Assembly: GCA_965209055.1 (NCBI GenBank)
Contig: OZ242374.1
Location: forward strand, 4,608,001 to 4,672,000
DNA: 64,000 nt
Direction of reading: 5' to 3'
Origin: Acidobacteriota bacterium
GTDB lineage: Bacteria > Acidobacteriota > UBA6911 > RPQK01 > JAJDTT01
Shown: positions 36,855 to 58,217 of the stretch, in pieces
How the letters are laid out: every line of letters starts with the position of its first letter
Position numbering within the stretch: the stretch's first letter is position 1
Translations under genes and position numbers: made by a program
The notes under the pieces: generated by a model
The model's database searches: none
Told to the model about the DNA's origin: nothing
The model's input: only the letters and a program-made list of their open reading frames with translations

Positions 36855-36898
36855 GGGAGGGGACCTTCCTGTCCCTCCGAGGCAGTGGGGGTAGGAAA
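36855..36898. repeat. REP doublet: one intact unit plus the left half of a REP split by element E1
   Basis: GGGAGGGGACCTTCCTGTCCCTCCGA, then AGTGGGGGT-AGGAAA; the missing arm ACCCCCACTCCC lies at 44893-44904. Confidence 0.75.
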
Positions 36899-36930
36899 TC
36901 CGTTGCTCTGTCCAACTGAGCTACGGGATT
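36892..36930 (-). other. tRNA 5'-half-like sequence forming the att arm of E1 (not a complete tRNA)
   Basis: Minus strand AATCCCG TA GCTC AGTTGGACA GAGC A ACGGA TTTCCTA has canonical acceptor/D-arm/anticodon spacing; no T-arm follows. Confidence 0.8.
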
Positions 36931-36972
36931 GATCCTTTCTTTTCAACCCTTTATCCCAGTTTTTCCCTCGAA

Positions 36973-38058
36973 TCATTTCCCCTTGCTCCCGACCCGTTGC
37001 CTGTTTGTTGCCTGTTGCGTTTGTGAGTCTTCGTTAGCCTGTGCCTCTCGAATGCTCTGGAGCGCATGCGAACTGACGTACCCCGCGTAGCGCATCGTCG
37101 TGCTGATCGCAGAGTGTCCCATCAGCTTCTGCACCGTCCTCACGTCCACGCCCCGCATCAGCCAATGGCTGCAACGGAATCGCCTCAGGTCGTGAAACCC
37201 AACCTTCAATCCCACCCGCTCGGCAGCACGACGTAGAGACTTGTCGGGATTCACCCATCTTGTCCCGGTCCGGCTGTTGACGAAGACGTATGGGATGTTC
37301 AGGTAGCGAACCAGCCCGGCCAGATATCCGGCGGCGTACTTCGAGAGCGGAATCTCTCTCGGTTCGTCGTCCTTGGTGAACTCCACCCACAACATCCGCC
37401 GACTCAGGTCCACCCGGCTCCAGGTGAGCGACAACGCTTCTCCCTTTCGAATCCCCGTCTCGCCGATCACTGCGATCATGGCTTGCATGTAAGGGTTGTC
37501 TATCGCCTCGACCAGGTCGCGGAACTGTTGAACCGCCAAAGGCCGGAAGACCTTCTTCGGCTCCTTTAGTTTGGGGAACCGAACCAGCGGATGTGTGTCC
37601 ACTTCCCCACACTCCAGTGCGTAGGAAAACAGCTTGCTGATGGCCGCAATGTCGCGGTTCACTGTGGCTGGCTGGACCTGTCCCTTCCGTTTCGCGACGT
37701 AGCGGTGGAGGTCCTTGCGCTGGAATTCCTTCAGGGGAATGTTTCCCAGCATGGCGTTGAGGCTCTTGAACGAGAGCGCATAGCGGCGCAAGCAGCGCAG
37801 ACGAGGTTTGCAATACTCCTCGAAAAAACGCTCGTAGAAACTCTGGACCGTCCAGATGGTGCGTTTCCCACCGGCGAGCTCGCGCTTGAGCTGCTTCCAG
37901 GTGCCGTCCAGGATGCTCGACTCGATTCGTGTTTGAAGTGCCTGTGCGCTCCGGTAATTGGGGGCGTACATTCGGAGCCGACCGGATCCGTTCGGCCAGT
38001 ACTTGCTGACGACATACCGCTGTCTCCCCCGGCGGTCCTTCACCTTGTAGATGCCCAT
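36973..38058 (-). CDS. Tyrosine recombinase/integrase (E1)
   Basis: TGIRKGE (R), FTK (K), FHDLRR (HxxR), LMGHS (H), TMRY (Y); AAGGAGG RBS. Confidence 0.95.
   Translation of the reverse strand: MGIYKVKDRRGRQRYVVSKYWPNGSGRLRMYAPNYRSAQALQTRIESSILDGTWKQLKRELAGGKRTIWTVQSFYERFFEEYCKPRLRCLRRYALSFKSLNAMLGNIPLKEFQRKDLHRYVAKRKGQVQPATVNRDIAAISKLFSYALECGEVDTHPLVRFPKLKEPKKVFRPLAVQQFRDLVEAIDNPYMQAMIAVIGETGIRKGEALSLTWSRVDLSRRMLWVEFTKDDEPREIPLSKYAAGYLAGLVRYLNIPYVFVNSRTGTRWVNPDKSLRRAAERVGLKVGFHDLRRFRCSHWLMRGVDVRTVQKLMGHSAISTTMRYAGYVSSHALQSIREAQANEDSQTQQATNRQRVGSKGK
36998..37016. promoter_or_regulatory. Putative integrase arm-type site, left end of E1
   Basis: TGCCTGTTtgtTGCCTGTT, also at 44759-44777, 53847-53864 (variant) and 56762-56780. 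Confidence 0.7.
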
Positions 38059-38642
38059 GCATCTCCTCCTTTCTGGATCCGGGTTCTTCGCCGTGGGGCG
38101 AATCGTACCACGGCTCCAGAGAATCGGCGTAGGCGTTCAGGTCTTCCAAGGCGAAGCCGCGGTAGCGACTACTACCTCCAGTTTAGGGTGAATCCCTCTA
38201 AGGCGGGTGACAAAACTGTCGTCAAAGTCATTCGTAAAAAATCGCTACGCGAGTTGAAGAAGATCGACGAGGCGCGGCCGGGACTCAAATGCGGCCTGGC
38301 GCGGGGTGCCCTCATTGTCGAGCCATCCGTGCCATCGGTTCCCTTCCTCACCCAGTAATCGGCGCGGTCCTTTCCACAGCGCCCAGGGACTTTTCCACGG
38401 AAAAACGGGCGTAGTTCTCTTCTCTTCAAGTCGGTAAGAGCAAGTAGCTAGTTGCAAATAACCGAACCGGGCGGGATGTGGAAACCATCGGAAAGGGAAT
38501 CCGGACCCGGCAGGGTAATGACGGCTTCGTCACAGGCGCAGCCGGCACAGGATCAGAGCAAAGGAGGAAGAGGCTTTTAAGGGGAGGACAAACAGAGACG
38601 AGGAAGGGGTGCGGAGGCACCCGCTCGACTGAGGGAGGCATT

Positions 38643-56050: not shown

Positions 56051-56061
56051 TCGGTCTTCTT

Positions 56062-56375
56062 CCGGGCCTTCCCGCAGGGAGAATTGAGACGGGAGCGACC
56101 CCCCCAGGGGGTGTTGCGCAAATGTGAATTGCGCAACGCCCCCGCGCCCGCACCGGGCAGCAAAAAGGGGGGGTCGCTCCCGTCCACCTCCGATTTCCCC
56201 GTGCAGGCGCCGGCGTTCGGGGGTAGGGGACCGTAACTGACTGAAAGGAAAACAGATCGGGGAAAGCAGAGGTGTGAATCACCGGGACCGCCTTTTGTGA
56301 ATCCACCCCCCATGTCCCATTCACATCCCGGATCAGGCGCGAGACCCCTTGACGCACACCCGAACCGAGTCTCCA
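56062..56375. other. Conserved structured non-coding module of E2
   Basis: Homologue of 43068-43381 with the same nested stems and TGTGAAT motifs. Confidence 0.7.
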
Positions 56376-56888
56376 AAAACCATTGCGGCACCGAGAGTGG
56401 TCATCTCGATCACAACTGAGACGGAGCGATCCTCCACCCGCGGTGCGCTGCCATCCAGGAGCGCAGACCCTTGGCGGCCACATGCTCCGGATCGACACCG
56501 ACGAGGACGACCCTGTCGTCCTCGTCGGCAATCGGCAGTTTGAACGCCAAGGAGCGCCGAGTCTTCCCCACCGTGCCGTAGTACACTTGCCGGGGATGCC
56601 GATTCATGGGAACGTCGCGCCGTTGGAAGCCGGACACCTTCGGCCTCAGGCTGAGTCCTGCGGTGGAGCCAAACGGTCGGCAAAGCCTATCGGATAAGGT
56701 CTCTGAGCCAGGCAACGGAAGGGGGAAAACGGGCGCGGCGGCGTTCAGGAACCGATTCGGCTGCCTGTTTGTTGCCTGTTCAGTATGTCAAACATGGGGA
56801 GTCAACCACCTTACCGGTCCGGCGAAGAACCCGGTAACATATTGAAAACGTTAACGTTCGGTAGTCTTTGACTGTGAGACAGTTGGGA

Positions 56889-58217
56889 CTAACAGTCCCC
56901 CCTCCCAACCTGGCGCGGCTTGAGAAGCCGCTGGAGCCGGGGGCTCTCCTCAAGAATGATGGTCTCGGACCGGTTCGGACCGGTGGAGATGATGGAGATG
57001 TCCGCACCGGTGAGTTCGCCAAGCCGATGCAGGTAGGACTTGGCCTTCTCCGGCAGGTTTTCGTAATCCTGGATGTCGGACGTGTCCTGCTGCCAGCCGG
57101 GATGGGTCTCGTAGATGGGGCTCACGTCTTCGAGAGCTCCCACGTCGGTGGGAAAACTCGTCAACCGGCTCCCCCGGTAGCGGTAGCCGGTGCAGATCCG
57201 AAGCTCCTTCAAGTGGTCCAGAACGTCCAATTTGGTGACCACCAGCGTGTCCACGTGGTTGATCAGATTGCTGTACCGGGCCACGACGGCATCGAACCAT
57301 CCGCAACGCCGGGGCCGCCCCGTGGTGGCGCCGTACTCGACGCCCCGCTCCCGGATCTCCTCCCCTTCCGCACCCTCCAGCTCGGTGGGAAACGGGCCGC
57401 CTCCAACCCGGGTCGTATAGGCCTTGGTGATTCCCATCACTCCGTCGATGGCGCCCGGCCCCACGCCGCTGCCGGTGCAAGCTCCGCCGGCCGTGGCGTT
57501 CGAAGAGGTGACGAACGGGTAGGTGCCGTGATCCACGTCCAGCAGCGTGCCCTGGGCGCCCTCGAAGAGGATGTTCTTCCCCCGCCGGATCTCCCGGTTC
57601 AGATACTCCGCCGTGTCGGTGACATAGGAGGCGATCCGTTCGCCGATGCCCAGATAGGTCTCCTCGATCTGGTCGGTGTCCACCCCGCCGCAGCCGTAGA
57701 CCCGGTCCAGAATGCGGTTCTTCAAACCCGCATAGTTCCGGAGCTTCGAGCGAAAGAGCCGCGGTGACAACAGGTCGCCGACCCGGATGCCCCTCCGGGC
57801 CATCTTGTCCTCATAGCAGGGTCCGATGCCCCGGCTCGTGGTCCCGATCTTCGCCTTGCCCAACCGGCGTTCCTCGGCGCCCTCCAACAGCCGGTGGTAG
57901 GGCATGATCAGGTGTGCCCGGTTGCTGACATGAAGCCGCCCCCGCAAGGAAAATTCCCCCAGCGCCAGCAGCTCCTCTTCCAGAGCCACCGGATCCACGA
58001 CGACCCCGTTGCCGATGACACAAGCCTTGCCGGGGTGCAGGATCCCGGACGGGATCAGGTGGAGGACATACTTGGCGCCCGCCACCAGAACGGTGTGCCC
58101 GGCATTGTGGCCACCCTGGTAGCGAGCGACGACGTCGAAATGACGTGTCGTCAGATCGACGATTTTTCCTTTGCCTTCGTCACCCCATTGGGTGCCGACG
58201 ATCACGACGTTAGCCAT
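56889..58217 (-). CDS. purA: Adenylosuccinate synthetase
   Basis: [29 protein letters not shown] and [14 protein letters not shown] motifs. Confidence 0.98.

Follow-up and report, generated by a model that had tools for sequence, protein, structure and literature searches.

Multi-copy tyrosine-integrase elements of tRNA-Arg ancestry occupy REP hairpins in an uncultured Acidobacteriota genome

Elements E1 and E2, each carrying the gene of a tyrosine integrase (int), lie in a 64,000-nt stretch (the window) of the genome of an uncultured Acidobacteriota bacterium, which consists of one contig of 6,077,182 bp (6.08 Mb). An earlier reading of the window (the original prediction) had placed the two in a family that inserts into the loops of repetitive extragenic palindromes (REPs). 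This observation was confirmed on a scale far larger than the pair in the window, since integrase elements across the genome targeted REP hairpins. We consider it very probable that these are integrative elements moved by a lambda-type tyrosine integrase, with a REP hairpin as target and an origin at tRNA-Arg, and that they have multiplied to 26 copies.

Genome-wide insertion sites

Searching the whole genome with the E1 integrase (tblastn) recovered 26 full-length integrase copies, 88.6-100% identical to that of E1, besides about a dozen fragments. A right end was present for all 26 integrases, 1.4-25 kb upstream of int, and four orphan right ends were found as well. Twenty-five elements were delimited, with sizes from 2,699 to 25,073 bp. 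The 26th (el26, 6074469-6077182) was cut about 35 bp short of the core by the contig end, and the start point of the assembly lay inside a copy of the repeat family.

In all 25 delimited elements the two junctions had a common direct repeat of 7-15 bp, identical at both ends, and joining the flanks rebuilt a hairpin with a G-rich stem and GGAG on one side (CTCC on the other strand). A TCTTC-like stretch was seen on the opposite side of the hairpin in many copies. The ends of every copy fell on the same two nucleotides of the conserved ends, and the four orphan right ends all ended in the core, followed by the C-rich half of a REP stem plus CTCC. Relatives were labelled G001-G005, G007, G010, G012 and G035, and 18 scored candidates were covered by the integrase census. 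REP hairpins were rebuilt in all eight paired elements of three congeners: six in G004, which had about ten integrase copies, and one each in G005 and G007, which had one to a few. Of two candidate right ends in G007 the nearer did not fit and the farther did. All nine left junctions read in these congeners ran on into the 3' half of a REP. The original prediction had named in advance, as one outcome that would tell against it, other copies lying mostly outside REPs or in tRNA genes; 25/25 sites here and 8/8 in the congeners were REP hairpins, and none was a tRNA gene.

The genome contained 3,320 perfect GC-rich hairpins with a stem of at least 7 bp, about 750 of which bore one of four related stems, of the GGCGG (377 hairpins), GGGCGA (247), GGGGGAC (110) or GGGGGT (13) type. 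Because only about 750 such hairpins are present in 6.08 Mb, chance was excluded as an explanation of 25 REP sites in 25 elements. GGAG was strongly enriched directly 5' of the stem, at positions -4 to -1. The target is a short imperfect palindrome with hundreds of copies and a common flank, as is typical of REPs. Two weak matches to Y1_Tnp, the domain of REP-associated tyrosine transposases (RAYT-like), were found in the genome (30.8 and 23.6 bits). The match of 30.8 bits, at 1142970-1143203, had three REPs 0.4 kb off on one side and the left end of el5 0.6 kb off; it is possibly a REP-mobilising gene beside a REP-targeted element.

Attachment site and integrase

When aligned on the conserved ends, every element had the attP core GGGA-N7-TCC(G/C). 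N7 was CTAACAG (window plus strand) in nine elements including E2, its exact reverse complement CTGTTAG in seven, TTGGAAA in five, TAGGAAA in four including E1, and TTAGAAA in one. The CTAACAG and CTGTTAG classes used the same REP type in opposite orientations. N7 differed by lineage and matched the loop of the REP subfamily used by that lineage; the repeat common to element and REP was exactly these 7 bp in five elements and reached into the stem in the rest. Judged from sequence, the junctions have the layout of a tyrosine-recombinase site, with a predicted 7-bp overlap between two inverted core sites. We infer, as we do for the exact cleavage points, that attP and REP must agree in the overlap, with core sites provided by the stem of the REP. 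The right arm was conserved over about 130 bp in 25/25 elements. A 19-bp motif of this arm (TGCCTGTTTGTTGCCTGTT) is present a second time across the core, at a distance of about 105 bp from it and as a direct repeat within the 3' end of int; the two copies are candidate arm-type sites. No arm-binding domain of Pfam was detected in integrase residues 1-90.

The E1 integrase matched PF00589 with an E value of 2.8e-25 (89.5 bits, against a cut-off of 27.1), and its Xer-type matches in PDB and NCBIfam were all under the equivalog cut-offs. Motifs GIR (202), HDLRR (289), GHS (314) and RY (322) were found in 26/26 copies, none of which had internal stops; in our reading these motifs would be the catalytic R, H-x-x-R, H and the nucleophile Y. 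Substitutions in int were mostly at third codon positions, indicating purifying selection. The phage and plasmid collections held no close relative of the integrase, with all matches below 60% identity and the best listed at 26-30%.

tRNA-Arg ancestry

Between the core and int lay 35-40 bp that resembled the 5' half of a tRNA, and this relic in E1 was 93.9% identical over 33 nt to the genome's own tRNA-Arg(TCT). It was homologous to the real tRNA-Arg 5' half that lies beside int in G003, G035 and G010. In G003 a complete tRNA-Arg(TCT) directly followed the integrase gene (product 86% identical), both on one strand; a homologous right end lay about 47 kb away, followed by a 42-bp copy of the tRNA 5' half starting in the anticodon loop, showing that integration takes place in this loop and exchanges the gene's 5' half for that of the element. 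The same layout was seen in G035 and G010 (71% identical), at tRNA-Arg TCT and TCG, and the G012 integrase (51%) was at a tRNA-Arg(TCT) in the usual 3' orientation. A tRNA gene served as attB only in these four outgroup relatives and in no element of the REP clade. According to the review PMC8371274, replacement of the tRNA 5' half is seldom met in bacteria, and the anticodon loop of 7 bp and the stem that encloses it correspond to an overlap between core sites.

A REP clade of all 35 REP-associated sequences (support 98/89) was recovered in a maximum-likelihood tree of 39 integrases, and the sequences of G012, of G035 with G010 and of G003 branched off outside it, in that order. This branching order indicates that tRNA targeting is ancestral and that REP targeting arose once in this sample. 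Grouped by subclade and read on the integrase strand, the loops formed a series that started at CTTCTAA (the tRNA), continued with TTTCTAA, TTTCTAG, TTTCCAA and CTTCCAG, then with TTTCCTA, CTTTCCT and CTTTTAG, and ended at CTGTTAG/CTAACAG. The non-tRNA picture drawn in the original prediction was right for the insertion sites, which are REPs, but not for the ancestry, as the family descends from tRNA-Arg anticodon-loop integrases and retains a 5'-half relic.

The integrase might be a passenger on elements moved by another enzyme, either a Y1 transposase of the RAYT/IS200 type that acts on REPs or a recombinase of the IS110 type. Members of IS110 are known to seek out REPs, and one of the two Y1_Tnp matches is 0.6 kb from el5. 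However, int was the only gene common to all elements, the sole gene of the minimal ones and intact in 26/26 copies. The junctions had the overlap-plus-inverted-core layout of tyrosine recombinases, and the tRNA-targeting relatives showed the classical direct repeat of the tRNA part, making a different mover very unlikely.

Empty sites in relatives

The closest relative without an integrase copy was G001, which had no integrase match and flanking genes 92-95% identical to those of the window. Its E1 site read CAGTGGGGGTAGGAAAACCCCCACTCCCA, letter for letter equal to the reconstruction, and its E2 site held the hairpin GGGGGAC-TAACA-GTCCCC followed by CTCC where the reconstruction has CCCTCC. 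The empty alleles foreseen by the original prediction were thus present at both sites in an integrase-free relative. Direct repeats at both junctions (25/25) together with an empty site equal to attB (G001) are features of lambda-type integration. Other REP variants occupied both window sites in G002-G005. Right-end matches of 78-89% identity were also seen in G001 (e.g., C1:532238-532388 and 5171611-5171754); this genome probably once had such elements, lost them and retains remnants.

Read-level data consisted of short Logan contigs only. An 8466-nt contig of run X1 fitted 48816-53752, exactly to the E2 junction, and continued with about 3.5 kb unlike E2 (the query ended at 56399). Another X1 contig, of 536 nt, spanned the left junction of E1, and a 717-nt contig of run X15 fitted exactly to the E1 junction at 36892 and then diverged. 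The 8466-nt and 717-nt contigs hint at other alleles in other samples, and the former is compatible with an E2-free allele. Of the 60 joints 15 were listed, none of them with a contig across an empty E1 site.

The two rarest hairpin types were mostly occupied, as might be expected if the targeted hairpins were footprints spread by the elements through integration and excision and not a prior repeat family. However, precise excision restores a site and cannot make one elsewhere; REP families with loops that no element uses have the same stems and GGAG flank; and REPs abound in integrase-free G001. Little credence can be given to this explanation. Slightly less credible again is that the hairpin halves are owned by the element, as in a transposon with terminal inverted repeats and a short target duplication. 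Flanks of the CTAACAG class just beyond the repeat were alike in many copies, and the hairpin of this class was more often occupied than free. Nevertheless, the complete hairpins at both orthologous sites of G001 show that the hairpin halves are not part of the element. Free hairpins were numerous (159 with the TTGGAAA overlap, besides the roughly 750 of REP type), the flanks followed the REP consensus of GGAG plus stem, which was seen also far from elements, and no conserved transposase was found in the elements.

Spread of the elements and points against the reading

Elements el16 and el24 were 100% identical over 2,782 bp, el8 and el14 were 100% identical over 10,516 bp, and el2 and el9 were 99.2% identical, all three pairs with unrelated flanks. 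Fully identical copies at unrelated sites indicate recent spread, which supports the transposon-like behaviour proposed at the outset. End-to-end identity of some copies would also suit segmental duplication or homologous recombination of one single-site island, but in identical copies the flanking DNA shows no relationship right to the edge of the 7-15 bp repeat, no common flank extends beyond the repeats in 25/25, copies end at the same two nucleotides and cargo varies, so that this origin is hardly conceivable.

Both orientations of the overlap, CTAACAG and CTGTTAG, were interleaved in the tree, and E2 (CTAACAG) was 95-97% identical to elements with the inverted overlap and only 93% to others of its own class, indicating that the overlap was inverted several times. 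The inversion may have come about by recombination across a partly mismatched overlap or by inversion of the palindrome loop itself.

Several points weigh against a lambda-type integrase spreading over an abundant REP pool. Repeated inversion sits uneasily with strict overlap identity, unless another process flips the overlap. Conservative site-specific recombination by itself gives no gain in copy number; reintegration after replication, re-entry from outside and replication of the circle are possible routes of increase. The abundance of the pool, as originally proposed, held for TTGGAAA and not for CTAACAG/CTGTTAG, with 12 free against 16 occupied hairpins, or for GGGGG-TAGGAAA, with 1 free against 4 occupied. 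The free TAGGAAA sites were counted by exact motif, because the overlap is off-centre by one base and a symmetric-arm count misses real targets. With free pools this small in two classes, the term 'abundant pool' is true for some classes only. Neither an excised circle nor an attP junction nor a cleavage site was seen, the short contigs being uninformative on excision. No excisionase was recognised either: the minimal elements had no second conserved open reading frame (ORF) and no codon periodicity outside int, though small or host-encoded factors are possible.

Element content

Six elements were minimal, at about 2.7-3.2 kb (el10, el11, el16, E2, el24 and, by its length so far, el26), and consisted of int, non-coding DNA and a structured module. 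When the 10 ORFs of E2 outside int were searched against Pfam, a single chance-level match was obtained; this region was treated as non-coding because it lacked both Pfam families and codon periodicity.

Cargo differed between copies and reached 22 kb. The cargo scan covered the 30 largest ORFs of 54 cluster representatives (at least 280 aa), and Pfam matches were obtained for 23/30, 17-18 of them defence-type. These included R, M and S subunits of type I systems, type ISP, MmeI and Eco57I-like enzymes and N6/N4 methylases, and further GmrSD, Cas3 with GSU0053/GSU0054, and Schlafen/AlbA. No phage structural or conjugation genes were present among these 30 ORFs, smaller ORFs being outside the search. 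Element el15 (3904155-3925234) carried Cas3 and GSU0053/GSU0054-family cas genes, a CRISPR-Cas (clustered regularly interspaced short palindromic repeats) module as cargo. In el13, a second, unrelated integrase at 3382675-3384042, with Arm-DNA-bind_3, Phage_int_M and Phage_integrase domains, suggests nested mobile elements.

Each delimited element contained a single structured module, of about 320 bp with long nested hairpins, always in the same orientation. There were 33 more matches outside delimited elements (one of them in el26), and the module was present in integrase-free G001 too. Compensatory changes were found at ten pairs among 31 distinct sequences, with no Rfam match and no conserved ORF. 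One might guess at a transfer or single-strand origin, or at an RNA.

A group II intron of 1912 bp was present in three 100% identical copies (784166-786077, 3708108-3710019 and 5306071-5307982), none in the window. Each copy interrupted an integrase gene behind codon 3 and lay on its sense strand; the intron homes into the multi-copy int gene. It matched RF02005 (160.7 bits) and RF00029 (41 bits), and its encoded protein had RVT_1 (E 2.9e-36) and GIIM domains. A 539-aa ORF beside int in three elements was rejected as a gene, having no family and being the antisense strand of this intron.

E1 and E2 in the window

The features of both elements are listed in Table 1. What had been read from the window held up: the two integrases were 90.0% identical over 360 aa (about 90% had been stated), both genes lay on the minus strand at the left ends, and the element ends were homologous (300 nt at 86% and 134 nt at 84%). 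Removal of E1 and E2 gave back the hairpins that had been predicted. The REPs named as examples were present, at 53646 and, with a match in 0/100 shuffles, at 3015-3038 on the minus strand, and ARAGORN found no tRNA gene in the window, in agreement with non-tRNA sites. No match was returned by an Rfam scan of 36500-57200 at E up to 1, so that the relic and the structured module are outside the curated families. The GC content of E1 was 54-60%, against 64-66% outside.

Table 1. Positions in the window of the features of E1, E2 and the adjoining REP cluster
Feature	Position	Strand	Remarks
E1 element	36892-44892		8001 bp; 7-bp direct repeat TAGGAAA at 36892-36898 and 44886-44892
E1 tRNA-Arg 5'-half relic	36899-36935	minus	acceptor strand, D arm and 5' strand of anticodon stem; integrase-side end
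E1 tyrosine integrase	36973-38058	minus	361 aa
E1 19-bp motif	36998-37016		in int 3' end; directly repeated at 44759-44777; candidate arm-type site
E1 cargo block	38643-42820	minus	three ORFs
E1 cargo ORF	38643-39698	minus	weak HNH match
E1 cargo ORF	between 38643 and 42820	minus	134 aa
E1 cargo Eco57I-type methylase/restriction-like protein	40025-42820	minus	931 aa
E1 structured module	43062-43381	plus	about 320 bp
E1 cargo protein with NucS_C-like nuclease domain	43605-44660	plus	351 aa; E 1.7e-9
E1 conserved far-end arm	44752-44885		about 135 bp; ends in core half-site GGGA
Host REP cluster	53608-53712		directly left of E2; empty REPs, e.g., at 53646
E2 element	53738-56899		3162 bp; integrase only, no cargo gene
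E2 direct repeat	53738-53752 and 56885-56899		15 bp; central 7 bp CTAACAG
E2 tRNA-Arg 5'-half relic	53753-53790	minus	
E2 tyrosine integrase	53819-54907	minus	
E2 non-coding spacer	54908-56065		no codon periodicity; many indels among copies; 10 ORFs without Pfam match
E2 structured module	56066-56387	plus	
E2 conserved far-end arm	56755-56884		

The stretch was found in sequencing runs labelled sponge metagenome in 12/19 rows and five of eight studies. Since most runs holding it carry this label, the host is probably sponge-associated.

Discussion

The attP of these elements comprises the core GGGA-N7-TCC(G/C), a conserved arm of about 135 bp on one side and an arm of about 120 bp on the other, which extends into the 3' end of int and takes in the decayed tRNA-Arg 5' half. 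Recombination would run across a 7-bp overlap identical in attP and REP, and the G-rich REP stem would give two inverted core-binding sites, as the anticodon stem does for tRNA-targeting integrases. The lineage started at the anticodon loop of tRNA-Arg(TCT), with an element that replaced the tRNA 5' half. Small changes of the overlap probably shifted it onto REP subfamilies with look-alike loops; each lineage uses only the subfamily whose loop matches its own 7-bp overlap. Twenty-six copies, with mainly defence genes as cargo, would be reachable because REPs are multi-copy and intergenic. A role of the arm motif, excision and the route of copy-number increase are presumed in this model.

Tyrosine integrases that cross over in the tRNA anticodon loop form a class in the sublocation scheme of Williams 2002, as reported in PMC8371274. 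The present integrases resemble them in enzyme family, in a 7-bp overlap within an inverted-repeat stem and in long attP arms, and their nearest relatives (G003, G035 and G010) sit in the tRNA-Arg anticodon loop. Unlike them, they use a multi-copy intergenic REP target with up to 26 copies per genome instead of one, and the tRNA part is a relic that restores no gene. The same article describes pTN3-like archaeal integrases with the 5' half of a tRNA gene as attB. The elements of G003, G035 and G010 likewise supply the tRNA 5' half and have int directly upstream on the same strand; this is a likeness of layout, and the pTN3-like integrases belong to archaeal plasmids and viruses with single tRNA targets.

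Among the insertion sequences (IS) that share REPs as dispersed, mostly neutral landing pads are IS1397 and ISKpn1 (IS3 family), ISPpu9, ISPpu10 and other IS110 members, all of which insert in or beside the loop. Their transposases are of the DDE or DEDD type, with a guide RNA in IS110, and they transport no cargo, whereas the present elements have a tyrosine integrase and attP arms, bear cargo of up to 22 kb and share no DDE/DEDD mobility gene. A multi-site, transposon-like lifestyle driven by a tyrosine recombinase is known from Tn916 and CTnDOT, which tolerate non-identical coupling sequences and use loose AT-rich or short-consensus targets. By contrast, the end repeats were identical in 25/25 elements here, and the target was a defined hairpin family. 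The integron integrase is a tyrosine recombinase acting on attC hairpins, and IntI4 was a weak PDB match of the integrase studied here. Both have an imperfect palindrome as partner site, but the palindrome in our case is explained by ordinary inverted core sites and needs no folded single strand, so that the likeness is at the family level only.

We found no paper on tyrosine integrases with REPs as attB or on a switch from tRNA to REP; this is provisional, as about 1.7 million articles of PubMed Central (PMC) were unsearchable. The chemistry is ordinary, and what is new are the target class, the copy number, the traceable path of retargeting and the defence cargo. The family connects REP biology with integrative islands. 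Its elements are a vehicle by which genes for restriction-modification, GmrSD and CRISPR-Cas come to lie at many neutral positions, and with natural attP/attB pairs served by enzymes about 90% identical, the rules by which overlap and core are recognised can readily be studied.

A broader view, which we hold as possible rather than probable, is that the family is a natural retargetable platform, in which the enzyme reads a generic G-rich stem and the 7-bp overlap is an evolvable address. Hopping between REP subfamilies and flips of the overlap would then be changes of address, in a defence-spreading 'integrase transposon' of Acidobacteriota from sponge metagenomes. If this is true, altering only 7 bp would redirect integration, and REPs would be mimics of anticodon arms.

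tRNA genes are the classic targets of integrases and restrict an element to one or few copies per genome. The family described here is a documented lineage that quit the tRNA niche for a dispersed repeat family and multiplied. It offers a stepwise series for the evolution of integrase specificity, from the tRNA-Arg loop to near-identical REP loops and on to unrelated loops.

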